Source: a virus
IMG/VR virus record: IMGVR_UViG_3300025886_000069
DNA: 40,420 nt
Strand: one strand, 5' to 3'
The notes beneath the pieces were generated by a model. The model had not been told where the DNA came from. It did not search any database and saw only the letters and a list, made by a program, of their open reading frames with translations. The position numbers and the translations under genes are program-made. Below, one piece after another: positions 3,303 through 24,843 of this stretch (positions within the stretch are counted from its first letter, which is position 1; the number at the start of each line of letters is the position of its first letter).

Positions 3303-5202
3303 TCATTTGCCCACTCCGTATCAGGAGTTTATTGCTAAGTCACGGTATGCCCGTTGGCTAGAATCAGAAGGACGCCGAGAGACTTGGGCAGAGACTGTCT
3401 CACGTTACATGTCCGAGGTTGTTGGGGACAAGCTCCCGGCTCAAGAGAGAGCCAACGTGGAGAACGAAATCCTTGGTCTGGGAATCATGCCGTCAATGCG
3501 TGCAGTCATGACCGCCGGTCCAGCTCTCCACCGTGACAATACCTCGGGCTACAACTGTTCTTATCTCCCGGTGGATGACCCAAAGAGCTTTGACGAAGCT
3601 ATGTTCATTCTCCTCTGTGGGACTGGGGTAGGCTTCTCCGTAGAACGTCAATTCGTGACAAAGCTCCCGGAAGTCCCAGAGGCACTGTTCGAGAGTGAGA
3701 CCACAGTAGTTGTGAAGGATAGCAAAGAGGGTTGGGCAAAGTCCTTCCGTCAAGTTCTGTCCCTCCTGTGGGCAGGAGAGATTCCCCAGTGGGACGTCTC
3801 TAAAGTTCGTCCCTCCGGTGCTAGGCTCAAGACCTTCGGAGGACGTGCATCCGGTCCTGCTCCACTGGTTGACCTGTTCAACTTTGCTGTTGCAGTTTTC
3901 AAGAAAGCCAAGGGACGCAAGCTGACTTCCCTAGAGTGCCATGACTTGATGTGTAAAATCGGTCAGGTTGTAGTTGTGGGAGGTGTCCGACGTTCCGCAA
4001 TGATTAGCCTGTCCAACCTGTCAGATGACCGGATGCGGAATGCAAAGTCCGGCCAGTGGTGGGAGAACGAAGCACAGAGGGCTTTGGCTAACAACTCGGT
4101 TTCTTACACCGAGAAGCCAGACGTTGAGTTGTTCATGAAAGAGTGGGCTTCCCTTATCGAGTCCAAGTCCGGTGAACGTGGTATCTTCAACCGCAAGGCT
4201 GCGGAGGCACAGGCACTAAAGAACGGACGTCGGGAAGGTGGCTACGAGTGGGGGACCAACCCTTGTTCGGAAATCATCTTGCGTCCGTACCAATTCTGCA
4301 ACCTTACTGAGGTCGTCGTACGTTCTGACGACACAGTAGAAACACTTGAGGAAAAGGTACGTCTGGCCACAATTCTAGGGACCGTGCAAAGCACCTTCAC
4401 TAAGTTCCCCTACCTTCGCAAGGTCTGGCAAAAGAACACTGAGGAGGAACGTTTGTTGGGGGTCAGCCTCACCGGGATTATGGACAACCCCTTAATGACC
4501 ACTGCGAACGCAGGGTTGGAGAAAACCTTGGAGCACCTTAAGTCTGTGGCGGTAGCTACAAACAAGGAGTGGGCTGAGAAGCTTGGGGTTCAGCAGTCTG
4601 CTGCAATCACTTGTGTAAAACCTTCCGGGACAGTTTCCCAGTTGGTAGACTCTGCCTCCGGGATTCATGCCCGACACAGTGAGTTTTACATCCGTACTGT
4701 CCGGGGTGACAACAAAGACCCCCTGACAGAGTTCTTGATTGACTCCGGGGTCCCTTGTGAACCCGACGTTATGAACCCGAACACCACTACTGTGTTCTCG
4801 TTTCCGGTTAAGTCACCGGGGGGACATTGGGCTGTTGTACGTGGTGACATGACGGCCATAGAACAGTTGGAGACTTGGTTGGAGTATCAGAGGCACTGGT
4901 GTGAACATAAGCCCTCCATCACTGTTTCTGTCCGAGAGGATGAGTGGTTGGACGTTGGTGCTTTTGTCTACCGTCACTTCGACGAAATGTCCGGGGTTTC
5001 CTTCCTACCTCACTCGGACCATACCTACCAGCAAGCTCCGTATCAGGAGTGTTCCGAAGAGGATTACGAAGAGGCACTGTCTAAAATGCCAAAGCTGATT
5101 GACTGGGGCAAGCTCTCGGAGTATGAGTTGGAGGACAACACCTCCGGAATGCAGACCTTGGCCTGTTCTTCGGACGGATGTGAGATAGTGGACTTAACTT
5201 AA
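3292..5202 (+). CDS. nrdJ: Ribonucleotide reductase, class II (B12-dependent, monomeric RTPR-like)
   Basis: 636 aa with active-site loop GTNPCSEIILRPYQFCNLTEV and a C-terminal Cys pair (ACSSDGCE). No beta-subunit gene in the genome. Confidence 0.85.
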   Translation: MSDNHLPTPYQEFIAKSRYARWLESEGRRETWAETVSRYMSEVVGDKLPAQERANVENEILGLGIMPSMRAVMTAGPALHRDNTSGYNCSYLPVDDPKSFDEAMFILLCGTGVGFSVERQFVTKLPEVPEALFESETTVVVKDSKEGWAKSFRQVLSLLWAGEIPQWDVSKVRPSGARLKTFGGRASGPAPLVDLFNFAVAVFKKAKGRKLTSLECHDLMCKIGQVVVVGGVRRSAMISLSNLSDDRMRNAKSGQWWENEAQRALANNSVSYTEKPDVELFMKEWASLIESKSGERGIFNRKAAEAQALKNGRREGGYEWGTNPCSEIILRPYQFCNLTEVVVRSDDTVETLEEKVRLATILGTVQSTFTKFPYLRKVWQKNTEEERLLGVSLTGIMDNPLMTTANAGLEKTLEHLKSVAVATNKEWAEKLGVQQSAAITCVKPSGTVSQLVDSASGIHARHSEFYIRTVRGDNKDPLTEFLIDSGVPCEPDVMNPNTTTVFSFPVKSPGGHWAVVRGDMTAIEQLETWLEYQRHWCEHKPSITVSVREDEWLDVGAFVYRHFDEMSGVSFLPHSDHTYQQAPYQECSEEDYEEALSKMPKLIDWGKLSEYELEDNTSGMQTLACSSDGCEIVDLT

Positions 5203-5211
5203 GGAAAACTG

Positions 5212-5337
5212 ATGGAACCCGACTTCAAGATGTACGAGTTTATTAAGAAGGTCTTGATTGCAGCTGCCCTCGTAGCTATGTCTGCACCAGTGGTCTTCAC
5301 CTTTTTCTCCGGTGGCCCCAACTTTGTGAATGGATAG
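5212..5337 (+). CDS. Putative 41-aa membrane peptide
   Basis: Translation MEPDFKMYEFIKKVLIAAALVAMSAPVVFTFFSGGPNFVNG; one TM helix. Confidence 0.25.
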   Translation: MEPDFKMYEFIKKVLIAAALVAMSAPVVFTFFSGGPNFVNG

Positions 5338-5339
5338 TC

Positions 5340-5456
5340 ATGATTATTGAAACTCTGCACCTACTCCTCCCTTACGTTGCCGGGGCTTATGCCTCGGTGA
5401 TGTTCCTCGGTTTTGCCGGGATGCTCTTGTCATCGAAGTGGAAAAACAATGTCTGA
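5340..5456 (+). CDS. Putative 38-aa membrane peptide
   Basis: Translation MIIETLHLLLPYVAGAYASVMFLGFAGMLLSSKWKNNV; overlaps the thyX ATG by 8 nt. Confidence 0.25.
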   Translation: MIIETLHLLLPYVAGAYASVMFLGFAGMLLSSKWKNNV

Positions 5457-6090
5457 GATTAAAGCCACCTACATCCACCACTGTGGGGATGACCTAACAA
5501 CCGTGAATGCTGCCCGGGTGTCTTTCGATAAGACAAGCCCGGAACTGACTGACCGGGATAGTAAACTTATCCACTACCTAGCAGACCACCAACACCTCTC
5601 CCCTTTCGGTCATGCTTTTGTGACCTTCAAGGTGGATGCTCCTGTCTTTGTGGCCCGGCAATTGGTAAAACACCAGTACCTCCGGATGAACGAAGTAAGC
5701 CGGAGATACGTGGACAGTTCCCCAGAGTTCTACTCTCCTGATTTTTGGAGAGGGAAAGCACGGGACAAAAAACAAGGTTCCTCCGGGGTCCTTCCTCATC
5801 AGCACTTTCTAAATGGGCAGTACGACGAAGCTATGTCCCGAATGGAGAAGGTTTACGACTTCATGATTTCTCAGGGGGTAGCACCGGAACAGGCACGAAT
5901 GGTCCTCCCTCAATCCATGATGACTTCATGGTGGTGGTCAGGCTCTTTGGATGCTTTCGCCAAAATGTGCAACCTACGCATGGGGGCAGATGCACAAGCT
6001 GAGACACGGGAAGTTGCTTTGCAGGTTGCCGAGACACTGGACGAACTTTACCCGGAGTCCTTCCGGGCTCTTATGAAAGGCCAAAAGTAA
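5449..6090 (+). CDS. thyX: Flavin-dependent thymidylate synthase ThyX homologue with a divergent signature
   Basis: ATG at 5449 preferred over TTG at 5413. HLSPFGHAFVTF..., VKHQYLRMNEVSRRYV, PEQARMVLPQS..., AQAETREVA align with the ThyX fold motifs. Confidence 0.75.
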   Translation: MSEIKATYIHHCGDDLTTVNAARVSFDKTSPELTDRDSKLIHYLADHQHLSPFGHAFVTFKVDAPVFVARQLVKHQYLRMNEVSRRYVDSSPEFYSPDFWRGKARDKKQGSSGVLPHQHFLNGQYDEAMSRMEKVYDFMISQGVAPEQARMVLPQSMMTSWWWSGSLDAFAKMCNLRMGADAQAETREVALQVAETLDELYPESFRALMKGQK

Positions 6091-11094: not shown

Positions 11095-11346
11095 AACCCC
11101 AGTAAAACCGTAGCTAAACCCCAGACCTCCTAACCCTCTAAATCGTAAACCCTTGAAATCCTTGGGTTTTCCCTACCGTAACCATATGTCTAAAAAAAGA
11201 GGTATATATTACTATAGTAAGAACTAGAGTTAAGGCCTCTAGAGTTACAACAAGGAAAACCGGTTAAGGTTAATTCCTAATAATTAATTTGCTAAGAGTC
11301 TTAAGGGTCCTTAAGGAAAACTTTAGTAAGGACTCTTGTAAGGACT

Positions 11347-11910
11347 TTGACAGTGCCTAAAGTATCAAATTTATTTGTAGTATTAATTTTAAGCCTTACC
11401 TCTTTAGGAGCTGTAGTAGCTCAGACTACGAATTATTCAGTAGAGGTTGAGCCTTACGTTATCGTAGTAGACAATGATCTCCGAGACGTAAGCCGAACAA
11501 TCAGCATCGACTCTGACAGTACCAAAAGAACCCTTGTGGTTAATAATCAAAACTTCAAGATTAAATCCAATTCTGGTTTTGTAGTAGAGCTTAGAATGCC
11601 AATGGATTTGGTTAGGGGCTACTGTGTCCCTGTCTTCAGGAATGACTCTAGTAATACCTATGTCAAAGCTGAGTTGATTGTCCGTGCGGGGAAGTCCCTT
11701 TATGACTCCCGTGGCCCTTCGTTCAACCACCTTACAAGAGGCGTTGTCATTGACTGCGACTCATCCGGAGTGGGAAGCCTCCTCATCACTAGACCTGAGC
11801 CAAGCCTTTCCCCTCTGGAATTTACAATCTGGTTAGCATTCCCAGCCGGGGAGCACTTAGCCGGAACCTACGATTTTACCATTCAGGTTTTCCCTCAAGT
11901 TATTGAATAG
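11347..11910 (+). CDS. Secreted beta-rich protein of unknown function (AT-rich moron)
   Basis: TTG at 11347 or GTG at 11353. Signal peptide KVSNLFVVLILSLTSLGAVVAQ/TT. Visibly more AT-rich than its neighbours. C-terminus ...AGTYDFTIQVFPQVIE. Confidence 0.6.
   Translation: MTVPKVSNLFVVLILSLTSLGAVVAQTTNYSVEVEPYVIVVDNDLRDVSRTISIDSDSTKRTLVVNNQNFKIKSNSGFVVELRMPMDLVRGYCVPVFRNDSSNTYVKAELIVRAGKSLYDSRGPSFNHLTRGVVIDCDSSGVGSLLITRPEPSLSPLEFTIWLAFPAGEHLAGTYDFTIQVFPQVIE
11353..11423 (+). repeat. Right arm of the 71-bp inverted repeat (start codon plus signal-peptide codons of the 11347 gene)
   Basis: See the left arm at 9603-9673. Confidence 0.9.
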
Positions 11911-11932
11911 GGCAATTTACGGAAACGAGAAC

Positions 11933-12331
11933 ATGCCAGAAAAACTCCCATACAAAAAGCCGATTGGAAACAAGATCAGACGCCTTATCAAGGCGGGTGT
12001 CTCCATGAAAGACATTTGTGCCGATGTTCAAGGTATGAAGGATGCTCCAAGTTCCCCAACCTCCATCTACAAAATCTACGGTGCTGACATCGCAGAAGCC
12101 CGTTCAGAAATCTTTGAGGCTGTAGGTGACCGAGTGGTCAACCAAGCTCTCCACGGTGACCCCAAGGAAGCAGCTACCTTTAAAAGCCAAGAGCTCTTCC
12201 TCCGGTCTAAAGCCGGTTGGTCTCCTACCAGCACAGTCCAAGAGCAGGAAATCACCGAAGACCCTGACACAGACCTCTCGGCGATTGATGAACTCATGAA
12301 TCTTCTGGGAAAATCTACCTCGGAGGAGTAA
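11933..12331 (+). CDS. terS: Terminase small subunit
   Basis: Lies immediately upstream of terL. N-terminal HTH-like IRRLIKAGVSMKDICADV. ...ATFKSQELFLRSKAGWSPT resembles the conserved TerS segment. ATG at 11933 preferred over TTG at 11903. Confidence 0.6.
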   Translation: MPEKLPYKKPIGNKIRRLIKAGVSMKDICADVQGMKDAPSSPTSIYKIYGADIAEARSEIFEAVGDRVVNQALHGDPKEAATFKSQELFLRSKAGWSPTSTVQEQEITEDPDTDLSAIDELMNLLGKSTSEE

Positions 12332-12346
12332 CCCCGAGGAACCCGA

Positions 12347-13711
12347 ATGACCTATAAGATTCCACCTATCACAGCACAGACTTTAAGAGAGCTCCCGGAC
12401 GAACAAGTCCAAGCAGCACTTACAGCCCTTGGGCCAGAGAAGGTAGCAGAGCTTCAACACTCTTGGGAGTTTTGGGCTAGACCTGACCAGCTAGAGCCTA
12501 GAGGCAAAGACTGGAACATCTGGCTTGCACTTGCTGGACGTGGTTGGGGCAAGACCCGAGCCGGAGCCGAGTGGGTAAGACACCGGGTAAAATCCGGTGA
12601 TAAAATCATTCATGCTGTAGCCCCTACAAAAGGGGACGTCCGGAAGGTTATGGTTGAGGGTGACTCTGGACTCCTAAACGTTTGCTGGTCCGGAGACAAG
12701 ACCTACAAGGGTGTCCCGATGGGGGCTCCGGGATGGTCTCCGACAAACAACACAATCACTTGGGCCAACGGTGCAAGGTGTGTGTTCTTCTCAGCAGAGG
12801 ACCCGGAGAGACTTCGTGGACCTCAGTGTCATTCGGCTTGGACTGATGAGCTTTGTGCTTGGAGAAATGCACAGATGACTTGGGACATGATGATGTTCGG
12901 CCTCCGGTTGGGCAAGCATCCCCAAGTGTTCATCACCACCACCCCGAAGACCACTAAGCTCATTCGAAACATCATCGGTGACCCCAAGACGATAGTTACC
13001 AAGGGTAGCACCTTCGACAACTCGGCTAACCTTGCAGACACCTTCCTTGATGCTGTTAAGGCTACCTACGAAGGGACTCGGTTGGGTAGACAAGAGCTCT
13101 ACGCAGAAATCCTAGACGAAGCCTCCGGTGCTCTTTGGAACCGAACCCTGCTTGCCTCCTGTGAGGTTGAGCCAGACGACGTTCCAGACTTGAACCGTAT
13201 CGTAGTCTCAATTGACCCCGCAGTCTCAGCTAATGCAGAGTCCGACATGACAGGCATTGTTGTTGCTGGTGTCGATATCAATGGCAAGGCTTACGTCTTA
13301 GCAGACCACACTGATCGTTGTAGTCCCCAAGAGTGGGCTGCAAAAGCTATTCACCTTTATCATGAATATTCGGCTGACCGGATTGTCGCAGAGAAAAACC
13401 AAGGTGGGGACATGGTTCGTCACACCCTACACACCGAGGACCCTACCGTCCCGGTTAAATTGGTACATGCTTCCCGGGGCAAGATGGCCAGAGCCGAGCC
13501 GGTGTCTGCCCTGTACGAACAGGGTAAGGTTTACCATGTCAGAGGTCTTAACGACCTTGAGGATCAAATGGTCCAGTGGGAACCTTTGGGGTCTACGGGC
13601 TCCCCTGACCGGTTGGATGCTATGGTGTGGGCAATTACTGACTTGGCCCTTAACGGCTACGCCAAACCCCAGCTAAGGCTTGCTTACAGCTCTGCACAGG
13701 GTTTGAGGTAA
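12347..13711 (+). CDS. terL: Terminase large subunit (GTA/PBSX-like family)
   Basis: WEFWARPDQ..P...W..WLALAGRGWGKTRAGAEWV (Walker A region), TDELCAW (Walker B), C-terminal nuclease half with VSIDPA and DRLDAMVWA. Confidence 0.9.
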   Translation: MTYKIPPITAQTLRELPDEQVQAALTALGPEKVAELQHSWEFWARPDQLEPRGKDWNIWLALAGRGWGKTRAGAEWVRHRVKSGDKIIHAVAPTKGDVRKVMVEGDSGLLNVCWSGDKTYKGVPMGAPGWSPTNNTITWANGARCVFFSAEDPERLRGPQCHSAWTDELCAWRNAQMTWDMMMFGLRLGKHPQVFITTTPKTTKLIRNIIGDPKTIVTKGSTFDNSANLADTFLDAVKATYEGTRLGRQELYAEILDEASGALWNRTLLASCEVEPDDVPDLNRIVVSIDPAVSANAESDMTGIVVAGVDINGKAYVLADHTDRCSPQEWAAKAIHLYHEYSADRIVAEKNQGGDMVRHTLHTEDPTVPVKLVHASRGKMARAEPVSALYEQGKVYHVRGLNDLEDQMVQWEPLGSTGSPDRLDAMVWAITDLALNGYAKPQLRLAYSSAQGLR

Positions 13712-13808
13712 CTAGGGCCACTAAAAACCCAAGGCCCCTCAGTGGGCTTTACCGGGCCATATAAGGGCCTTTTGAGATACAGAGGACCCTTAAAAGGGGA
13801 GTAGAAAA

Positions 13809-15164
13809 ATGACAAAAAAGAACCTTTCCCCTACAAAAGCAGTCAAAGAGCTCGGCGTTTCGGGCAATAATGTCCACAACGGTGGGATTCGTGCAGACGA
13901 GTTCCTTCCGGAGTTGCGTGGTCGTAAGGCCATTAAGAAGTTCCGGGAAATGCGTGAGAATGACTCTACCATTGGTGCTGTCCTCTATTCCGCAGAGCAA
14001 ATCCTCCGGGACGTGGACCTACGGGTCAAGCCCGCAGACGATAGTCCCGAAGCTAAGGCAGGCGTGGATTTCTTGGAGTCTGTTCTAGATAACATGGATC
14101 ACTCTCTGGATGACCATATCTCCGAGAGCCTTTCGTTCTTGTCCTACGGGTTTATGTGGTTTGAGCTTGTCTACTTCCGGCGTCCGGATGGTCGTTTGGG
14201 TGTAAAGAAGATTGCAGCCCGAGCACCTTGGACTATTGACCGGTTCGAAGTGGACCACAAGACGGGTGACGTTTTGGGTGTTTATCAGACGACCTCCCGT
14301 CCCGGATCCACAAACAACTTCATCCCCAAGTCGAAGTCTATCCACTACAAGACTCACACGATTAACGGGGACCCTTCTGGTCGTAGTATCCTCCGGAATG
14401 CGTACACCTCTTACGAGTACCTTAATAATATACAGGCTATTGAGGCCATTGCGGTTGAACGTGAACTTGCTGGTATTCCAGTAGGTCGCCTACCTTCCGA
14501 GTACCTGTCCTCAGATGCTACCGAGACACAGGCAGCTATCAAAGCTGAGTTCGAGACCATCCTCCGGGACGTTAAGTTCAACGAACAGGGTTTCTTGATC
14601 CTTCCTTCCGACATGTACCCGGACAAAGACGGGACTCCTACGAGCAACCCTCTGGTTAGTATCGAGTTAATGAGCTCCTCCGGTTCCCGGAACATCGCCA
14701 TTGACCCAATCATTAGCCGATACCAGCACGACATTGCACGGTCCGTCCTCTCTGAGTTCCTGCTACTTGGTTCTCAACAGTCCGGTGGTTCGTATGCATT
14801 GTCCAAGTCTAAGACGGACATTTATCTCCGGGCCTTGGAGAGCTACATTACGACCATCACCGATGTTCTGAACAAGCAGCTTGTGAAACCTCTTTGGGAG
14901 CTTAACGGGCTCTCCCCTGAGACTATGCCGAAAATCAAGGCTTCCGACGTTGCCCCTCACGACCTCCGGGAAATCTCCGGGTTCCTGAGAAACTTGAACC
15001 AAGCAAACATCACAGTGCACGATCACCCCGAGGTTATTCAAGACCTCATGGATATTGCGGAATTGAGCTATGAACCTAAGAAACCAAGTGTCCAGCCTGT
15101 TCAAGAGCTGGGAGTCTCGAAATCGGCTAAACAAGGATCGTTCAGCTTTAATGGGGATGAGTGA
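13809..15164 (+). CDS. Portal protein
   Basis: 451 aa, directly downstream of terL. GGGAG SD. Expected size and position for a portal; family not resolved by eye. Confidence 0.75.
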   Translation: MTKKNLSPTKAVKELGVSGNNVHNGGIRADEFLPELRGRKAIKKFREMRENDSTIGAVLYSAEQILRDVDLRVKPADDSPEAKAGVDFLESVLDNMDHSLDDHISESLSFLSYGFMWFELVYFRRPDGRLGVKKIAARAPWTIDRFEVDHKTGDVLGVYQTTSRPGSTNNFIPKSKSIHYKTHTINGDPSGRSILRNAYTSYEYLNNIQAIEAIAVERELAGIPVGRLPSEYLSSDATETQAAIKAEFETILRDVKFNEQGFLILPSDMYPDKDGTPTSNPLVSIELMSSSGSRNIAIDPIISRYQHDIARSVLSEFLLLGSQQSGGSYALSKSKTDIYLRALESYITTITDVLNKQLVKPLWELNGLSPETMPKIKASDVAPHDLREISGFLRNLNQANITVHDHPEVIQDLMDIAELSYEPKKPSVQPVQELGVSKSAKQGSFSFNGDE

Positions 15165-15234
15165 CCGGGAGCTCCAAGACATTGGGGTTTCCCGTCTTGA
15201 AATTAACGAGGTACTCCGGAAGGGTCGCAAGTGA
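15070..15234 (+). CDS. DUF1127-type small arginine-rich protein, overprinted on the portal 3' end (54 aa, not in the ORF track)
   Basis: The +1 frame reads MNLRNQVSSLFKSWESRNRLNKDRSALMGMSDRELQDIGVSRLEINEVLRKGRK. W..R.R...L..SDRELQDIGVSR.EI matches the DUF1127 core (LsDreLaDIGLsR.dI). Its TGA overlaps the GTG of the next gene (GTGA). Confidence 0.55.
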   Translation: MNLRNQVSSLFKSWESRNRLNKDRSALMGMSDRELQDIGVSRLEINEVLRKGRK

Positions 15235-15959
15235 GTAGGTACGAGAGGGAGCAGTTTAAGGACAGTCCCCTGTCCATATCTCAGGGGCAGGTCTCAGGGC
15301 ATTCCATCACTTCTAAGTTTGGCTACAACTCGGCGGCTGATACAGTTAAACAGTCCGTCTGGTCAGCTGGTGGACTCTACCCTTGGTCTGCACTAGCTAC
15401 GGCTCAAACCATTTACCTAATTTCCACAAGTGCAGCTGACACCAGTTCGGTAGAAGTTCAGGGGCTGGACGAAAACTACGTCCTCCAGACTGAGACAGTG
15501 GCCCTCACAGGGCTTACAGCAGTCTCTACTACCAGCACCTTTCTCCGGGTCTTCCGGATGATCTACCAAGGCTCTACGGATAACGCCGGGGTAATTACGG
15601 CAAGGGTTACTTCTGGGGTTGGGACTGTAGTTGCCCAAATTGACGCAGCTTACAACCAGACCTTGATGGGTGTCTACACAGTACCAGCCGGACACACTGC
15701 TTACATCACAGCAGTTTCAGTCTCTGGCACTAAAGACCAAGCCCTTGAGTTCGAAGGTTGGCACAGACCAGAAGGACAGACCTTCCGGATTGCTCACAAA
15801 AGCATGGCGTCTAACTTCTACCGTTATGATTTTGTCCTACCTCTGGCTTTCCCTGAGAAGACGGACTTTGATACCCGAGTTATTTCCGGGGCTGCTAATA
15901 CGAAAGTCTCCGTAAACTTCGACATGATCCTCGTAGAGGACTACGCAAACAACCCATAA
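15231..15959 (+). CDS. Conserved phage protein, probable virion or head-associated beta-sandwich protein
   Basis: GTG start, 242 aa, located between the portal and the protease; function unknown. Confidence 0.45.
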   Translation: MSRYEREQFKDSPLSISQGQVSGHSITSKFGYNSAADTVKQSVWSAGGLYPWSALATAQTIYLISTSAADTSSVEVQGLDENYVLQTETVALTGLTAVSTTSTFLRVFRMIYQGSTDNAGVITARVTSGVGTVVAQIDAAYNQTLMGVYTVPAGHTAYITAVSVSGTKDQALEFEGWHRPEGQTFRIAHKSMASNFYRYDFVLPLAFPEKTDFDTRVISGAANTKVSVNFDMILVEDYANNP

Positions 15960-15970
15960 GGGAGACTTTT

Positions 15971-16483
15971 ATGTCCACGAATCGGGGTACTAACATGAAC
16001 CGGACAAAGTTTGACAGAGTGTTCAAGTCAGTCCTTGAACGGACTGGGGATACGGAACGGGCAAAGAACGCAGCCCTGTTTGCTTGCTCCAAAAAGGCCC
16101 CTGTAGAGGGAACCATTCTTAAGGCAGACGAAGAACAACGCCTAGTCTGGGGTTGGGCTTCTGTAGTCACAGAGAACGGAGTGCCTTTAGTAGACCGGCA
16201 AGGGGACGTCATATCGGCTGATACGATGGTCCTTGCAGCAAATAAGTTTATGGAGGATGTACGAGTAGGAAAGCTTATGCATTCCGGGGGTCAGATTGGC
16301 CTCGTAGTACACAGCCTCCCACTAACCAAAGAGATTGGGGACTCCCTTGGGGTTCACAGTGACCGTGAAGGATGGATCGTCGCATTTAAGGTGCAGGATG
16401 ATGAAGTCTGGGAATCGGTTAAGTCAGGCCAACTTAGGGCCTTTTCTATCGGCGGTACAGCCAAACGGGAGACCATCGAATGA
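15971..16483 (+). CDS. XkdF-like putative prohead serine protease
   Basis: EEQRLVWGWASVV...VDRQGDVISADTMVLAANKFM...HSG...GWIVAFKVQDDEVWESVKSGQLRAFSIGG matches the XkdF-type domain pattern. Confidence 0.65.
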   Translation: MSTNRGTNMNRTKFDRVFKSVLERTGDTERAKNAALFACSKKAPVEGTILKADEEQRLVWGWASVVTENGVPLVDRQGDVISADTMVLAANKFMEDVRVGKLMHSGGQIGLVVHSLPLTKEIGDSLGVHSDREGWIVAFKVQDDEVWESVKSGQLRAFSIGGTAKRETIE

Positions 16484-17388
16484 GCACACTACTGATGGAC
16501 TTGGAGTTGGAGGAACTATCTTTGGTAGATCGGCCAGCAAACCAAGCCGCCACAATTTGCCTTGTAAAGAGGGATTCACCAATGCAAGACCAATACCTAA
16601 AGGAACGGCAAGCTTTCTATATGGAAGAAGGCCACTCCGAGGAAGACGCCATTAAGATGGCGGAAGAAGAAATGTCTAAAATGCCCGAGGCACAGCAAGC
16701 AGAGCTGTTCGGGTCCGAGGAAGCTGAAAAGGAAGACGATGCAGAGAAAGCAGAGCATTCCGAGGAAGCAGACAAGGAAGATGACGAAGACGCAGAGAAG
16801 GAAGACGATGCAGAGAAGGAAGACGATGAAGCTGCTAAGGCTGAATCAGAGTTCCTCGCAGAGTTAGATGCATTGAAGGCCGAGAATGACCGTCTCTCTA
16901 AAGCTCTAGAAGACAACGGTTTCACGGTATCCGATGAAGCCATTACGAAGGCTGCTCCGGCACCTGAGTTTATTGAATTGGACGGAGAGAAGATTTCTAA
17001 GTCAGACATTCCTGCCCCCGTCCTTAAAGCACTCGAAGCAGTGGAGATTGAAAAGCAGCAAATTGAGCTACGTAAGCAAGCTGCGGAAATCCTCCCTAAC
17101 TTTGAAAACGAAGTTGCGGCCAACATCCTCAAGGCAGTTGCCAAGGATGACGCAATGTTAGAGGCCCTTAAGTCTGCGGACGCAGCTATTGGGGCTTCCA
17201 TGTCCGAGGTTGGCGAAGCCTCCGTTGAAGCTGACATGGCTTCTCCGAAGGACAAGCTTGACGTTCTAGTCAAAAACCACATGGACGAAAACGCCCTCCC
17301 GAAATCCTCTTTTGCCAAGGCTTACGCAGCTGTAGCTAAGACGGACGCAGGTAAGGCACTTATCAAAGAACTCTACAAAGGAGAGTAA
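16480..17388 (+). CDS. Scaffolding protein (acidic, coiled-coil)
   Basis: ATGA coupling to the protease. ELSLVDRPANQ motif, then long E/D/K/A-rich helical repeats (EKEDDAEKAEHSEEADKEDDEDAEKEDD...). Sits before the capsid genes. Confidence 0.65.
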   Translation: MSTLLMDLELEELSLVDRPANQAATICLVKRDSPMQDQYLKERQAFYMEEGHSEEDAIKMAEEEMSKMPEAQQAELFGSEEAEKEDDAEKAEHSEEADKEDDEDAEKEDDAEKEDDEAAKAESEFLAELDALKAENDRLSKALEDNGFTVSDEAITKAAPAPEFIELDGEKISKSDIPAPVLKALEAVEIEKQQIELRKQAAEILPNFENEVAANILKAVAKDDAMLEALKSADAAIGASMSEVGEASVEADMASPKDKLDVLVKNHMDENALPKSSFAKAYAAVAKTDAGKALIKELYKGE

Positions 17389-20006: not shown

Positions 20007-20425
20007 TGACTACGAGCACACGGGTAGAAATCTCAGCTAGTCTCCAAGAGAAAATCGACTCTCTGGGAGATATGGCCGAGGAAGGTGTGGCCCGTTCCTT
20101 GTACGAAGTCTCACAGACTTTGACTAGCTCTTCTCCGGTAGATACCGGGGCCTTTGTTACGTCTTGGTCATTGTCAGACAAGCCCTTATCTCGTAGGTCC
20201 TACAGTTCCCACGGGAAGTCTCCAGCCGTCTCCCAGAACTCGGAAAAGAACCGGGCCTTGGGGGAGCTTATTGAAGACATTAAGGGGCTCCGGAAACGGT
20301 GGACGTTTAAGAAGGGTGTTGAGGTTTCAGCAGGAACTTTCTACTTCGTGAACGGAGCACCCCACGCAGCACAGGTCAATAAGAACTCAGCAGTTATAGC
20401 TAAGGCTCGGAGGAAACATGGCTAG
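20006..20425 (+). CDS. HK97 gp10-like tail completion protein
   Basis: TAATG coupling; SPVDTGAFVTSW and YFVNGAPHAAQV motifs. Confidence 0.55.
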   Translation: MTTSTRVEISASLQEKIDSLGDMAEEGVARSLYEVSQTLTSSSPVDTGAFVTSWSLSDKPLSRRSYSSHGKSPAVSQNSEKNRALGELIEDIKGLRKRWTFKKGVEVSAGTFYFVNGAPHAAQVNKNSAVIAKARRKHG

Positions 20426-20840
20426 TATTTACAAAGACATTCGGGCAGCATTCGAAACAGAACTATCCGGGACCTCTGGCATTCCAGACATATCTTACGA
20501 AAACTTAAAGTATTCTCGTTCCGCAGGGACACAGTTCGTTGAAGCTCAACTAATCCCCACCGAACGTAAGCCAGCTGTACGGGGGACAAACCCCCAGTAC
20601 CGTTACGAGGGAATATTCCGGGTTATCTGTTACTCCCCAGAGGGAGAGGGACCCGGTGCAGCTGACACCCTTGCGGACTTGGTACTAGACGCATTCCCGT
20701 CTGCTACGGACATTTCCTACACCAACACAGACCCCACCACCTACAAGGTCTCTCTGGACTACTCAGAGAGGGAAGCCGGAGGGATTGAGGGGTCCTTTTA
20801 TTACGTACCCGTGAACATTGGGTTTTACATCTACAACTAA
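20418..20840 (+). CDS. Tail terminator (DUF4128-like)
   Basis: 140 aa, directly upstream of the tail tube gene. ...FVEAQLIPTERKPAVRG...YRYEGIFRVICYSP... pattern. Confidence 0.5.
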   Translation: MASIYKDIRAAFETELSGTSGIPDISYENLKYSRSAGTQFVEAQLIPTERKPAVRGTNPQYRYEGIFRVICYSPEGEGPGAADTLADLVLDAFPSATDISYTNTDPTTYKVSLDYSEREAGGIEGSFYYVPVNIGFYIYN

Positions 20841-20852
20841 GGACAAGAGAAG

Positions 20853-21773
20853 ATGGCTTTTGCACAGGGTTCCCGTTCGGGGCTTTCCTACCTTACCGAA
20901 ACAACTTTCGGCACTACTCCGGCTGGCTCTTTTGCAAGCCTCCCGTACAACTCCCACAGCCTGAACCTGTCCAAGGACCGTGTCTCTGGGAACGAAATGC
21001 AGCCTGATCGTATGGACCGGGTGGACCGTCACGGTAACCGTTCTACTGCGGGTTCTATTGCAGTGGACCTCCGTAATGGCACTTTTGACCCACTTATTGA
21101 ATCGGCAATGTTGTCTTCGTTCTCCACGAACATTTGCAAGGTTGGGACCACTCCCAAGTTCTTCTCAATCGAAGACCACGCAGACGACATTACGCAGTCC
21201 CGGATTTTTACCGGTATGACTGCCTCCACGATGGGCATTTCCATTGCGCCTAACCAGATGGTGACTGCAAGCTTTGACATGGTCGGGAAAGACATGACCA
21301 TCACGGGGACACCTAAGACAGTAACAGCCGCAACTATCGCAGAGCCTTTTGACGCCTACTCCGGTGACATCAAGGTCGCAGACGATGGCGTTACGGCTAT
21401 TGATGCTTCCTCTGCGTTGGCTATCATTACCAGTGTAGACTTTTCCGTAAGCAACTCTTTTGCCCCTACTTTTGTAGTCGGTGATGATTCAGCCCCTGCC
21501 CTTGAGTTCGGTAAGGCAGTTGTAGAAGGCACACTCACAGCCTACTTTGAAGACGCAACCCTAATTAACCGTTTCATCAACGAGACGGAAAGTGGTATTG
21601 AAGTTTCTGTGGCAGACCCTTCCGGTAACAGCATGACGTTCCTTTTCCCTCGGGTTAAGATCAACGGTGCAAACGTACCGGTTTCCTCAGAGTCTTCCCG
21701 TATTATCTCCCTCCCGTTCGTAGCCCTTTACGATGCTACAGAAGGGACCAACCTTACAATTACCACCGCATAG
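20853..21773 (+). CDS. Major tail tube protein
   Basis: 306 aa, between the terminator protein and the chaperone/tape measure; followed by a hairpin. Confidence 0.65.
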   Translation: MAFAQGSRSGLSYLTETTFGTTPAGSFASLPYNSHSLNLSKDRVSGNEMQPDRMDRVDRHGNRSTAGSIAVDLRNGTFDPLIESAMLSSFSTNICKVGTTPKFFSIEDHADDITQSRIFTGMTASTMGISIAPNQMVTASFDMVGKDMTITGTPKTVTAATIAEPFDAYSGDIKVADDGVTAIDASSALAIITSVDFSVSNSFAPTFVVGDDSAPALEFGKAVVEGTLTAYFEDATLINRFINETESGIEVSVADPSGNSMTFLFPRVKINGANVPVSSESSRIISLPFVALYDATEGTNLTITTA

Positions 21774-21790
21774 AATCCGGCAAGCCGGTA

Positions 21791-21830
21791 GGAGGGGGTG
21801 AACTTGTCGGGTGGTTCCCCTCTCCGTTTT
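21791..21830 (+). terminator. Weak hairpin terminator or attenuator after the tail tube gene
   Basis: GGAGGGGG ... CCCC(T)CTCC stem, 18-nt loop, then GTTTT. Confidence 0.3.
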
Positions 21831-21863
21831 AACATCTGTACCCGATAACTAAGGACACTCGAC

Positions 21864-22268
21864 ATGGACTTGAAAGACTTGGCTCCGAAAGCCGATACTC
21901 TAGAGGTTATTCTTAAGCATCCCCTGACTGGGGAAGCTCTTATGAATGACGGAAGAGACGAAGAAATGACCGTCACTATTTGGCTCCCACACACCAAGGC
22001 ATACAAAAAGGCCCTGTACGAGCTGACAGACTCAAACTTAAAGCTTGCTGAACAGGACCCGGAGAAGGTTCGTAAAGCTTCCTACCTAGCCAATGCCTCC
22101 CTAGAGCTTGTCTCGAAGGTGACTAAAGAATGGGACATAACCTTGGACGGAGGTTGCCCCAAGTTTGCTCTGGCAAAGGTCAAGGAAGTTTATGAGAACT
22201 ACCCTTGGATTAAAAAGCAAGTAGAGAAGGCGGTCGAAGACCACCAAAATTTTATCACAACCTCTTAG
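21864..22268 (+). CDS. Tail assembly chaperone (gpG analogue)
   Basis: 134 aa, acidic, immediately upstream of the tape measure gene. Confidence 0.6.
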   Translation: MDLKDLAPKADTLEVILKHPLTGEALMNDGRDEEMTVTIWLPHTKAYKKALYELTDSNLKLAEQDPEKVRKASYLANASLELVSKVTKEWDITLDGGCPKFALAKVKEVYENYPWIKKQVEKAVEDHQNFITTS

Positions 22269-22606
22269 GGGAACTAGTTTCCTTCGCAGATTGGTATTTC
22301 GATATACACGCCGAGGTTAGTGGCACTTCAAAACTAGAGCATCTGAGACAAGTACAGAGGCAGACCGGACGTACTCCAAAGGGACTATTAGGACCAAAGT
22401 TTCCTAGTCTACTAGGTCACGTCTGGTCTGCCTTTCTTAGTTTGAGCATGGGCCGGACGTACACAAGCAGTGGTCCAAGCCCCCTCTCTTACGGGGAGAT
22501 ATTGGCTTGGAAGCACCTTACAGAGGCCACAATTTCTGCAAGGGACATAGATTCCCTTAAGAGGTTAGACAACATGTTCATAAGGAAAGTACATGGCGGA
22601 CATTAA
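21864..22606 (+). CDS. Frameshift-extended tail assembly chaperone (gpGT analogue)
   Basis: The -1 frame after 22253 reads YHNLLGELVSFADWYFDIHAEVSGTSKLEHLRQVQRQTGRTPKGLLGPKFPSLLGHVWSAFLSLSMGRT...DIDSLKRLDNMFIRKVHGGH. It has no start codon of its own and ends 14 nt inside the tape measure gene. Confidence 0.55.
22247..22253 (+). promoter_or_regulatory. Slippery heptamer A_AAT_TTT for -1 ribosomal frameshifting
   Basis: X_XXY_YYZ pattern in the zero frame (CAA AAT TTT). The -1 frame is open from 22214 to 22606. An alternative shifty site, AAA AAG, lies at 22212-22217. Confidence 0.5.
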
Positions 22607-23855
22607 ATTTGTCATCGATGTAGATGACGACGGTAAGATTAAGAAGGCCACAGAGAGCATTGAAGGACTCGGGAGCTCTGCTGAAAAGACTGGAGGTTCT
22701 GCCTTTGACTTGGGCTCTACTTTCTCTCCCAGTGGTGACCTGACAAAGAACACCTTTAGCTTCGGGGAGGCAAGTGACGAAGTTACCGGGTCTCTGGGAA
22801 TGATGTTCGAACAGATGGCCGGAGGTACTCCGCCGATGGACTCCTTTCGGGACATGGTTTCCGGACTTGGCGGTGTCCTTGGTCCCGTTGGAGCTATTGC
22901 CGTTCCCGCCATGATTGCCGGATTGGTAGCCCTTGCACCAATGATTCTTGAGAATACCAACCTTTTCGAAAGTTTTGGGAAGTCTGTGGAAAAGGCAGGG
23001 GAATCTATGGACGGTGCAGTCACCTCCCTTGCGTCTTGGCAGGGAGCTATTGACGACGGGCTTGGTCCAGAGATTAGCAACTTTGCAAAAACTGTCCTCA
23101 AGCAAGACCTTATAGAATCCTCAGAGGAAGCCAACAAGGTAATGACCAAGCTGGCCAAGAACTTTGACAACACTTTCCGGCTTATGAAAAAGGCCGGTAG
23201 ACACACCTACGGTGACGCCGAAGAAATCAAACGTATGACCGCCCTAGAGGAAGCTTCCTTGCGGATTCAGGAACTGGGGGAGCTAGACACCTCCAACGCA
23301 CGGGAGCTTAAGAGCACACTTGAAGTTGTGACCTTTATCCTCGAAGAACAAATGTCCGGTGCTCTGGAAATGAACGGGGACAAGATGGAGAAGCTCATAG
23401 ACTTCGGAGAGAAGCTTCGGGACATGATTGAACAAATCGGCGATGGTCAAGAGGTATTAGACTCTGCCCTCAACGACTCTCTGAGAACAGCCCAACAGAT
23501 TGGGACTGTATCCGGAGGCTCTGCCACAGTACAAGCCTACGCAAACGGTGGTGTCGTAAACCGGGCAACTTCCTTCACCAAAACAGACGGCTCCCTTGGG
23601 GTCATGGGTGAAGCAGGTCCGGAGGCTATCTTGCCCCTCAAACGGGGGTCAGATGGTAAGCTAGGGGTTGCTATGGACGGTGGCTCCTCCTCCGGTGGTG
23701 TAGTGATAAACCAGACGTTTAGCTTCTCTGCCAACGGTGATGACTCCGTTAAGAAGATAATTGCACAGGAAGCCCCACGCATTGCCAAAATGACGGAGCA
23801 GAGTATTATTAACAGCCGTCAAAGAGGCGGAAGCATCCGGAAGGTCTTTGGATAA
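22593..23855 (+). CDS. Tail tape measure protein (short, 420 aa)
   Basis: Helical Ala/Gly/Glu-rich sequence. C-terminal motif YANGGVVNRATSF....GVMGEAGPEAILPLKRGSDGKLGV is typical of tape measure proteins. Confidence 0.8.
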   Translation: MADIKFVIDVDDDGKIKKATESIEGLGSSAEKTGGSAFDLGSTFSPSGDLTKNTFSFGEASDEVTGSLGMMFEQMAGGTPPMDSFRDMVSGLGGVLGPVGAIAVPAMIAGLVALAPMILENTNLFESFGKSVEKAGESMDGAVTSLASWQGAIDDGLGPEISNFAKTVLKQDLIESSEEANKVMTKLAKNFDNTFRLMKKAGRHTYGDAEEIKRMTALEEASLRIQELGELDTSNARELKSTLEVVTFILEEQMSGALEMNGDKMEKLIDFGEKLRDMIEQIGDGQEVLDSALNDSLRTAQQIGTVSGGSATVQAYANGGVVNRATSFTKTDGSLGVMGEAGPEAILPLKRGSDGKLGVAMDGGSSSGGVVINQTFSFSANGDDSVKKIIAQEAPRIAKMTEQSIINSRQRGGSIRKVFG

Positions 23856-24490
23856 TGGCGATAACTTACCCACTAAGCACTCCCACAACTATCGGAATCG
23901 AGAGTATTTCCCTACGTGCTAGGAATGTTGTGGCACTTACTGAATCCCCTTTCACTCTTAAACAGCAAGTAGTTCAGCACGGGGGACAACGGTGGGAAGC
24001 TTCTGTTTCCATCCCGTCCACCCGTAGGGACAAGGCCGAAGAGTGGGCTTCCTTCCTACTGTCCCTCCGAGGACAAGTTGGGACGTTCCTACTCGGGGAC
24101 CCGAATGCTGCTACAGCAAGAGGGACAGCCTCTACGACTCCGGGGACTCCGGTGGTTGCCTCGGCTATGTCCGCAGGGGAGAACTCGGTCCATCTTTCAG
24201 GCCTGCCAGTCAGTCAAACTGGTTACCTAGAAATCGGGGACTACATCCAACTCGGCTCTGGCCTAACTGCTACACTTCACAAGGTTTTGGAGAGAGCAGA
24301 TTCCGACGTTTCCGGAGAAGCAACTTTTGAGGTTTGGCCAGACGTGAGACGGACGGTAAGTCTCTCTGAGGTTGTTGTGGTAGACGATGCTAAGGGCTTA
24401 TTTCGTATTCAAACCTCCGTCTCGGACTGGAGCATAAATTCAAGCAGCACCTACGGCATTTCTTTTGAAGCTGTAGAAGTCATTACGTAA
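23855..24490 (+). CDS. Distal tail / baseplate-type protein (putative)
   Basis: TAATG coupling to the tape measure gene. ...ESPFTLKQQVVQHGGQRWEASVSIPSTRRDKAEEWASFLLSLRGQVGTFLLGDP pattern recalled from phage tail modules. Confidence 0.45.
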   Translation: MAITYPLSTPTTIGIESISLRARNVVALTESPFTLKQQVVQHGGQRWEASVSIPSTRRDKAEEWASFLLSLRGQVGTFLLGDPNAATARGTASTTPGTPVVASAMSAGENSVHLSGLPVSQTGYLEIGDYIQLGSGLTATLHKVLERADSDVSGEATFEVWPDVRRTVSLSEVVVVDDAKGLFRIQTSVSDWSINSSSTYGISFEAVEVIT

Positions 24491-24499
24491 GGACCAGAC

Positions 24500-24841
24500 A
24501 TGACCACCACGATAGTCCACAAGAGGGGTGACACTTTAGAGCTCTCCCTCCAACTCAAATCTAACTCGGTAGCCACTGACATCACGGGTTACACTGTCTC
24601 AAGCCAACTCCGGGACTCTACAGACACCCTCCTAGTGACAGACAACTTCACGGGTAACCTGACTTACACCCTGACCGACGCAGCTACGGGGACCTTTACC
24701 CTCACAGCAACCCCTACACAGACTTCGGAATGGGCCACCCGGACCTATGACTGTGACATTCAAATCACCGAACCAGACTCGGACGTAGCATCTTCGGAGA
24801 CGTTCAAAATCAAGGTTGTTAAAGATATTACGAGGGCTTAA
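24500..24841 (+). CDS. Small Ig/BppU-N-like tail protein (putative)
   Basis: 113 aa; HKRGDTLELSL...DITGYTV....ATGTFTL...TRTYDCDIQIT... Confidence 0.4.
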   Translation: MTTTIVHKRGDTLELSLQLKSNSVATDITGYTVSSQLRDSTDTLLVTDNFTGNLTYTLTDAATGTFTLTATPTQTSEWATRTYDCDIQITEPDSDVASSETFKIKVVKDITRA

Positions 24842-24843
24842 CG

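Follow-up and report, generated by a model that had tools for sequence, protein, structure and literature searches.

The 3′ end of a phage portal gene contains the start of a second, much shorter reading frame, which continues beyond the portal stop codon. This raises the question of whether the short frame is a gene in its own right and, if so, to which family its product belongs, which of the two overlapping sequences is the older one, and what the product might do. The locus lies in a window of 40,420 nt, by which we mean the whole stretch of DNA analysed here (viral record IMGVR_UViG_3300025886_000069); the coordinates of its features are reported in Table 1.

Table 1. Features of the portal–protease region in the window.
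Feature	Position	Strand	Remarks
Large terminase gene	12347..13711		Neighbour of the portal gene
Portal gene	13809..15164	+	451 aa; Portal_Mu PF06074, E = 4e-29; phrog_113, E = 4e-67; stop codon 15162–15164
GGAA, weak Shine-Dalgarno-like element	15059..15062	+	Sole such element 5′ of the DUF1127 ATG
Portal codons TAT GAA	15069..15074	+	Tyr-Glu of S-Y-E-P; contain the DUF1127 ATG (15070–15072)
DUF1127 (YjiS-like) small-protein gene	15070..15234	+	54 codons; ATG start; TGA stop 15232–15234
Dual-coding stretch	15070..15164	+	95 nt; read as the variable C-terminus of the portal in frame 0 and as the basic N-terminal helix of the small protein in frame +1
phrog_8198 gene	15231..15959	+	242 aa; no assigned function; GTG start overlaps the DUF1127 stop (GTGA)
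XkdF-type prohead protease gene	15971..16483	+	Peptidase_S78_2, E = 2e-17

A first-pass annotation had read this short frame as a DUF1127-type gene, and its description of the locus was confirmed on the sequence: the translation was identical, the overlap with the portal 3′ end lies in the portal +1 frame, and the GTGA junction closes the 66-nt interval between the portal stop and the GTG at 15231, which the ORF occupies. The conserved portion of the portal protein closes with the motif ...DLMDIAELSYEP at about residue 423, and past the Tyr-Glu pair the portal frame extends across 31 full codons at the start of the small gene. The protease forms the far border of the variable portal–protease junction that houses the ORF, and is followed by a probable scaffold protein and by an E-type major capsid protein. 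The size of the ORF alone is not significant, because alternative-frame ORFs are abundant in this DNA (51 ORFs of at least 30 aa in the 5 kb around the locus). What sets it above chance is the combination of a Pfam match, a frame conserved in 23 sequences and purifying selection.

[quoted passage not shown] When the window peptide was compared with the Pfam DUF1127 profile PF06568, it scored 34.2 bits, above the curated cutoff of 23.3 (E = 2.1e-8, residues 10–45), and the cutoff was passed independently by all 12 of the diverged clade representatives assayed (best E = 3e-11), so that the proposed family membership was borne out. Against a profile built from the family itself the ORF scored 60.9 bits, as a single copy in the window. 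Published DUF1127 proteins are about 45–75 aa long, with the domain covering most of the length (PMC8034643), have a mean arginine content of about 14% (PMC12501420) and conserve a D-I-G-L motif (PMC11707872). In keeping with these properties, the phage product is a small-domain protein, 54 aa long, with 8 arginines in its 54 residues (14.8%) and a net charge of +5; it carries the motif as D-I-G-V, its relatives as D-I-G-L or D-I-G-I. In clade B orthologs, lysine stands in place of many of the arginines. Among 120 homologs, D32, L35, D37 and R42 are invariant and G39 is nearly so (at least 90%). The conserved core of the domain (residues 27–45) falls largely beyond the overlap with the portal gene.

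The AlphaFold model (AF2, pLDDT 77.5) predicts a long N-terminal helix (3–28), a short helix (32–37) and a C-terminal one (42–53), and resembles the models of other phage DUF1127/YjiS-like proteins with TM scores of 0.7–0.86. Searches of the PDB returned SAM-domain matches alone by sequence profile, all weak (E above 0.04), and no match below E = 4 by fold; NCBIfam gave no match for the window peptide, and PHROGs gave a weak one to the unnamed phrog_26566 (E = 3e-4). A homolog search started from the single sequence recovered an identical JGI protein alone, and a search by profile recovered 176 matches, cellular proteins included.

A megablast of positions 13800–16000 against GenBank phages found no match, and relatives were therefore sought by protein search. 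A portal-based scan of IMG/VR gathered 80 related loci, with portals 67–90% identical to that of the window, and about 35 of them carry an orthologous DUF1127 ORF (23 distinct at the DNA level). Across these 23 sequences, peptide identity to the window is 31–63% and portal identity 67–88%. In every one of them the ATG lies in the +1 frame within the portal motif A-E-L-(S/N/T)-Y-E-P, as T-ATG-AR, and the tyrosine codon is TAT. After Y-E-P the portal tail is wholly different from subclade to subclade, and the variable position of its stop gives overlaps of 56, 62, 68, 86, 95 or 110 nt. Without exception, the DUF1127 stop is coupled to the start that follows it (GTGA, ATGA, TAATG or TGATG), even where the downstream gene differs: the window's clade has phrog_8198 at this place, other relatives have a ChaB-DUF5824-protease fusion, and in some relatives the DUF1127 gene is coupled straight to the protease gene. 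Conservation of the frame in related phages, the check proposed by the first-pass annotation, thus extends to 23 distinct sequences, all of which keep it open.

Around half of the relatives have no DUF1127 gene. These show Y-D-P instead, with TAC or TAT as the tyrosine codon and a +1 frame crowded with stops; most of their portals end 11–16 residues later, usually with TAATG coupling, and a few have longer tails. In the portal tree, two DUF-positive clades stand beside one DUF-negative clade, clade C, which includes the complete genome of CRP-6; this topology indicates that the overlap arrangement is older than about 30% portal divergence. One relative, L093, whose portal is 90% identical, carries a stand-alone DUF1127 gene of 51 aa with an AGGA Shine-Dalgarno motif and ATGA coupling to the protease gene. 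Its portal and DUF1127 genes are separated by two inserted genes, one with collagen repeats and one lectin-like. A second locus, L028, has a similar stand-alone copy. The stand-alone copy of L093, together with the relatives that lack the gene, shows that the DUF1127 gene is autonomous and accessory, and the portal–protease junction is a hot spot for cargo genes.

The sequences upstream of the gene are alike in L093 (GGATTGAACAATG) and in the window (GGAATTGAGCTATG), and a recombination joint at this position is possible; the GGAATTGAGCTATG sequence of the window is dictated by conserved portal codons.

Selection was evaluated on 22 ungapped sequences joined in a minimum-spanning tree, along which substitutions were classed by their effect in both frames, with rates given per mutational opportunity. 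In a portal-only control of 297 nt, portal-synonymous changes occurred at 0.22–0.26 and portal-nonsynonymous changes at 0.013–0.019, which corresponds to a portal ω of about 0.07, a value that like all the ω values here is approximate owing to the minimum-spanning tree and the partial saturation of the sequences. No constraint was detected in the +1 frame of this control. In the part coding for DUF1127 alone, DUF-synonymous changes occurred at 0.20–0.26 and DUF-nonsynonymous changes at 0.06 (approximate ω 0.23, p = 2e-26). Within the overlap, changes that are nonsynonymous in the portal frame and synonymous in the DUF frame reached 0.255, which is the neutral level, as against 0.115 for portal-synonymous/DUF-nonsynonymous changes (p = 1.4e-4) and 0.112 for those nonsynonymous in both frames. 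Here the approximate ω is 0.46 for the DUF frame (p = 3e-7) and 1.0–1.3 for the portal frame; given a DUF-nonsynonymous change, the portal ω is 0.98. Compared with the portal-only control, the overlap has a 10-fold higher portal-nonsynonymous rate, and its portal-synonymous rate is 0.110 against 0.217 in the control. This suppression of about 2-fold (p = 9e-6) at synonymous sites of the portal 3′ end is the signal that the first-pass annotation had proposed to look for. The DUF frame is therefore under purifying selection both inside and outside the overlap, and the overlapping tail of the portal, an unconstrained segment of variable length, changes at an approximately neutral rate.

These data bear directly on the notion that the frame is open by chance and matches the motif fortuitously, being unexpressed and functionless. 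Such a frame would fit the abundance of short alternative-frame ORFs and the background level of the Shine-Dalgarno signal, and it is scarcely credible given the score above the Pfam cutoff, the independent matches of the 12 diverged orthologs, a frame that stays open down to 31% identity under an approximate ω of 0.23, and the stops that riddle the same frame in the DUF-lacking relatives. The Pfam match, the ω values and the ortholog matches effectively refute it. In conclusion, positions 15070..15234 are shown to form a true accessory gene, whose product is a DUF1127 (YjiS-like) protein of 54 residues.

The same measurements reverse the direction of the overlap that the first-pass annotation had proposed when it described the small gene as overprinted on the portal gene. 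It is the DUF frame that is constrained, the portal tail being neutral and variable in its stops, and DUF1127 is an old family; from this age and from the asymmetry of selection it follows that the portal frame runs on into the small gene as a tail, and that the small gene was not invented inside the portal gene. Stand-alone DUF1127 copies are present in about 40 unrelated viral contigs, and also in alphaproteobacterial genomes. True overprinting would require that the ORF was born de novo in the portal 3′ end and came to resemble DUF1127 by convergence. The position of its start within a conserved portal motif is what such an origin would predict, and yet full-domain homologs occur in many bacteria, stand-alone genes occur in unrelated phages, the domain core lies mostly outside the overlap, and within the overlap it is the portal frame, not the DUF frame, from which constraint is missing. 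We regard this origin as virtually impossible. A de novo gene was also rejected as a candidate class on two grounds, namely the homologs found outside the overlap clade among the 176 profile matches, in cells and in unrelated phages, and the weaker constraint on the portal frame than on the DUF frame in the overlap.

In most DUF-bearing lineages the portal tail is acidic (net charge -5 to -11) and the overlapped DUF segment is basic (+3 to +5); the window's own portal tail, with a net charge of +1, is not acidic. The overlap is likely tolerated because acidic GAR codons, when read one base later, become AAG/AGA-type codons.

With regard to expression, the duplex between the DUF1127 ATG region and the anti-Shine-Dalgarno sequence has an energy of -3.5 kcal/mol; the ATGs of the window have the same value on average, and the median for the genes of this phage is -6.2. 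Similarly weak energies were found in all overlapped relatives, and stand-alone phage copies reach -9. With 95 nt between the ATG and the portal stop downstream of it, the distance is too great for termination–reinitiation, and the RNA fold around the start shows no notable structure (z = -0.29). Translation of the gene, suggested by selection rather than by initiation signals, probably proceeds at a low level, since the portal codons permit just a weak ribosome-binding site.

This weak motif, together with the fact that the DUF frame is the portal +1 frame in every relative and that two subclades keep it open for 24–37 codons upstream of the ATG, would also be compatible with a +1 ribosomal frameshift near the portal end, which would place a portal–DUF1127 fusion on some portal subunits without the ORF being translated alone. 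Several observations make this very improbable. The ATG is kept in 23 of 23 sequences although the tyrosine codon could be TAC; in the window and in most relatives the DUF frame is closed by a stop 3 nt before the ATG; the sequence after the ATG diverges so strongly between subclades that no conserved slippery site is left; and stand-alone copies exist in L093, L028 and other phages. A programmed frameshift of the lambda G/GT type was accordingly rejected, as the locus has an independent start and lacks a conserved slippery site.

The window phage is a marine phage whose packaging and head genes are akin to those of Roseobacter phage CRP-6. This closest cultured relative infects an RCA Roseobacter (Rhodobacteraceae) strain (PMC6918029). 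In addition, the nearest cellular homologs of the small protein are alphaproteobacterial, with Rhodobacteraceae/Paracoccaceae on top. The earlier suggestion of a proteobacterial host is therefore plausible, and the host probably belongs to the Rhodobacteraceae. Among 38 bacterial genome loci, none lay near a portal, terminase or protease gene that would provide a prophage link to a host. DUF1127 genes were also found in the unrelated roseophages CRP-603, CRP-2, CRP-212 and CRP-7, as well as in Agrobacterium phage Atu_ph07.

What the protein does can be approached through its cellular counterparts. In R. sphaeroides, CcaF1 is an RNA-binding protein with an effect on the RNase E-dependent maturation of sRNAs (PMC8034643). 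PhoR, the sensor kinase for phosphate, is the partner bound by the Agrobacterium SDPs and by E. coli YjiS, which keep phosphate uptake in check; direct contact with PhoR and repression of the Pho regulon define this group, and DUF1127 proteins have been proposed to contact the acidic linker of PhoR (PMC12501420). Salmonella YjiS is membrane-associated, and no binding of RNA was seen with it (PMC11707872), which indicates that functions diverge within the family. As to the window itself, an Rfam scan of its whole length returned no family at gathering score and no CcsR/cuckoo RNAs, and the cuckoo motif CCTCCTCCC is not enriched in it (15 matches against 18.3 expected, none near the DUF1127 gene). 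The adjacent CcsR or 'cuckoo' sRNAs with CCUCCUCCC loops that mark a CcaF1 ortholog (CIN1 locus) are thus missing from the window, and we conclude that this is not a CcaF1-type locus.

The best explanation, to which we assign a probability of roughly 70%, is that of a DUF1127 accessory gene, read through by the portal tail, whose product acts as a host-directed mimic of DUF1127 regulators. According to this model, the gene would be transcribed with the late head operon, and its own ATG would serve for translation, probably at a low level. The product is basic, with a net charge of +5 and 15% Arg, and three helices are predicted for it. In the infected alphaproteobacterial cell, this protein would most likely behave as a copy or competitor of the small DUF1127 regulators of the host, which by analogy with the studied members may bind anionic partners, either RNA or the acidic PhoR linker. 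For the phage protein, binding to PhoR would be as possible as the manipulation of host RNA metabolism that the first-pass annotation put forward. Against a host-directed role, the benefit that a phage would draw from dampened phosphate uptake, the effect of the Agrobacterium DUF1127 proteins (PMC12501420), is not obvious.

The main rival to a mimic of host regulators is a virion-associated role, for which placement in the late operon is just as suitable as for a host-directed one. The protein would in that case be a virion or packaging accessory that, while heads are assembled or the genome is ejected, binds DNA or the acidic portal tail for which the same stretch codes, rather than host regulators. 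The gene is always found in the late head module, in the portal–protease interval, and the stand-alone copies of HMO-2011-type phages and of CRP-7 adjoin packaging genes, 0.5–2.6 kb upstream of terL. The opposite charges of most portal tails and of the overlapped DUF segment, reported above, could likewise favour contact, given the acidic PhoR segment proposed as a DUF1127 ligand. However, a core assembly factor would not be missing from about half of the relatives, complete CRP-6 among them, which keep portal, protease and capsid without the gene. Furthermore, the portal tail of the window is not acidic, portal tails do not show the sequence constraint that a specific binding site would need, and the junction also receives unrelated cargo genes. 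On balance, we consider a virion-associated role unlikely.

Starting from the host-directed mimic as the preferred reading, a more detailed version can be put forward tentatively, and we hold it to be possible rather than probable: viral mimics might lock PhoR or redirect RNase E-dependent RNA decay in infected marine Alphaproteobacteria, might have been recruited repeatedly by HMO-2011-type phages, CRP-7-type phages and the present clade, and in this clade might have their expression set low, relative to portal synthesis, by the portal-embedded start.

Two statements of the first-pass annotation on novelty were too strong. The gene is not hidden from standard gene calling, since the ENA, JGI and Logan pipelines call these ORFs with PF06568, and both overlapping genes are called. 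Nor are phage DUF1127 proteins undescribed: GenBank lists gp69 of CRP-603 as a DUF1127 domain-containing protein, and UniProt/BFVD list YjiS-like proteins of Agrobacterium phage Atu_ph07 and of uncultured phages. In the literature searched, phage-encoded DUF1127 proteins are not discussed, and the roseophage genome papers are silent on them. What is new here is that the long overlap is conserved and asymmetrically constrained, and that DUF1127 recurs across several roseophage groups.

The family is under active study, with RNA binding and PhoR binding as competing mechanisms, and several unrelated and abundant groups of marine roseophages carry their own copies. If these copies act on phosphate sensing or on RNA turnover, they would constitute a new class of very small host-takeover genes, in an environment where phage production is limited by phosphate. 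The locus is in addition a clean natural case of asymmetric dual coding, in which a constrained small gene shares DNA with the unconstrained tail of an essential one, and where single-base edits are possible that disable one product and spare the other. For annotation, it indicates that 60-aa ORF cutoffs and limits on gene overlap may conceal real phage genes.

Compared with known systems, the phage protein resembles CcaF1 (RSP_6037 of Rhodobacter/Cereibacter sphaeroides) in being an arginine-rich DUF1127 protein, and CcaF1 comes from the Rhodobacteraceae, the likely family of the host. A natural 50-aa variant of CcaF1 is known that has no N-terminal extension (PMC8034643), and the weak SAM-like signals of the phage protein recall the Smaug-SAM prediction for CcaF1. 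The difference is that CcaF1 is defined by its place in a locus with the CcsR 'cuckoo' sRNAs, whose maturation it assists, and the window is without such RNAs. The SDP1–3 proteins of A. tumefaciens and YjiS of E. coli and Salmonella are likewise short, basic and nearly all domain (PMC12501420, PMC11707872), YjiS having the same length of 54 aa, and they act via partner binding and not catalysis. These are chromosomal regulators shown to bind PhoR; the phage protein is instead encoded in a late phage operon.

Among phages, CRP-603 (gp69, UAW59236.1), CRP-2, CRP-212 and CRP-7 offer the nearest parallel, being marine roseophages that also carry a DUF1127 gene near the packaging module, unannotated in CRP-2, CRP-212 and CRP-7, with products sharing the core M-T-D-R-E-L-x-D-I-G with the window peptide. 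Unlike the window gene, their copies are of 62–72 aa, stand alone upstream of terS/terL and are free of overlap; the proteins are only 34–54% identical to the window peptide over the aligned parts, and the lineages (HMO-2011-type and CRP-7-type) are unrelated to the window phage.

Long out-of-frame gene overlaps are known in phages from lambda Rz/Rz1 and from phiX174. Those overlaps and the locus described here have in common that two proteins are encoded by one stretch of DNA, in different frames of the same strand. In the present case, unlike in lambda and phiX174, the overlap takes just the 5′ half of the small gene, the share contributed by the larger gene is a dispensable tail, and the arrangement is reversible without the loss of either gene, as illustrated by L093.

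In three unrelated cultured roseophages, CRP-603, CRP-7 and CRP-212, a stand-alone DUF1127 gene precedes the terminase genes by 0.5-2.6 kb and, among these three copies, only that of CRP-603 is annotated as DUF1127. Therefore, phage DUF1127 genes recur beside the packaging module. In the phage group of the window, variable cargo is concentrated at the junction between the portal and protease genes, which represents a hot spot (see table).

Two related loci, L006 and L028, have in common a long C-terminal extension of the portal protein, unlike that of the others; its sequence, ...AKK(Y/F)QQLELEL...SLEIL.SES, resembles a coiled coil. In both loci the DUF1127 gene is shifted about 3 kb downstream. 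Since L006 and L028 belong to separate portal clades, the common extension together with the displaced DUF1127 gene suggests module exchange by recombination.

Coordinates of the features described in the text, each in the numbering of its own locus
Feature	Locus	Position (strand)	Content
Junction cargo	Window	15165-15970	phrog_8198 gene
Junction cargo	L093	3121-5979	collagen-repeat and Laminin_G_3 lectin-like genes
Junction cargo	L085-type contigs	L085 3729-4829	ChaB-DUF5824-protease fusion
Junction cargo	CRP-6 (L081)	3841-6067	hypothetical gene and tail-fibre genes
Stand-alone DUF1127 gene	CRP-603 (L082)	3456-3674	
Stand-alone DUF1127 gene	CRP-7 (L083)	932-1120	
Stand-alone DUF1127 gene	CRP-212 (L084)	3453-3647	
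Portal extension	L006	3297-3470	
Portal extension	L028	4261-4422	
Antisense ORF	Window	14763-15230 (-)	155 aa
XkdF-type protease	Window	15971-16483 (+)	
Acidic protein	Window	16480-17388 (+)	302 aa
Antisense ORF	Window	16617-17318 (-)	233 aa
Siphovirus-type tail genes, putative	Window	20418-27393	
Siphovirus-type tail genes	L088 (relative)	11107-12126	

The 155-aa antisense ORF of the window covers the portal/DUF1127 overlap entirely, together with the greater part of the DUF1127 gene. This ORF is probably spurious, because no family evidence was found for it and the substitution pattern agrees with the plus-strand frames. Further downstream, a very acidic, low-complexity protein of 302 aa, probably a scaffold, is encoded between the protease and capsid genes, and the 233-aa antisense ORF mirroring its gene is likely an artefact of biased composition. 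The top PHROG match of the XkdF-type protease is phrog_1530 (E = 1.6e-25), labelled 'DNA methyltransferase'; as the match is limited to profile positions 196-354 of 379, this label was probably carried over from fusion proteins.

The relatives, and probably the window as well, also carry a siphovirus-type tail set, comprising a tail terminator, a tail tube and an 849-aa ORF, which may be the tape measure. Among cultured phages, CRP-6 is the nearest in its portal and terminase; it is described as short-tailed and mosaic (PMC6918029), and the common part is limited to the packaging and head module.

In Shimia genomes (L169, L174 and L196), the cellular homologs form pairs of tandem DUF1127 paralogs, about 300-500 nt apart or less, which at 68-75 aa exceed the phage proteins in length (51-54 aa). 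P0028, a 41-aa protein of the phage DUF1127 clade, is assigned by NCBI to a 'Candidatus Bathyarchaeota archaeon' MAG; its 3.5-kb source is most likely a mis-binned phage contig.

Finally, three or four of the phage DUF1127 peptides gave weak Pfam matches to SAM-like domains (SAM_TNK, E = 9e-4; SAM_SMF, E = 2e-3), and a PDB profile search returned weak SAM-domain matches (CNK2, E = 0.04). These signals agree with the resemblance to the Smaug SAM domain reported for CcaF1, a DUF1127 protein of Rhodobacter sphaeroides (PMC8034643).
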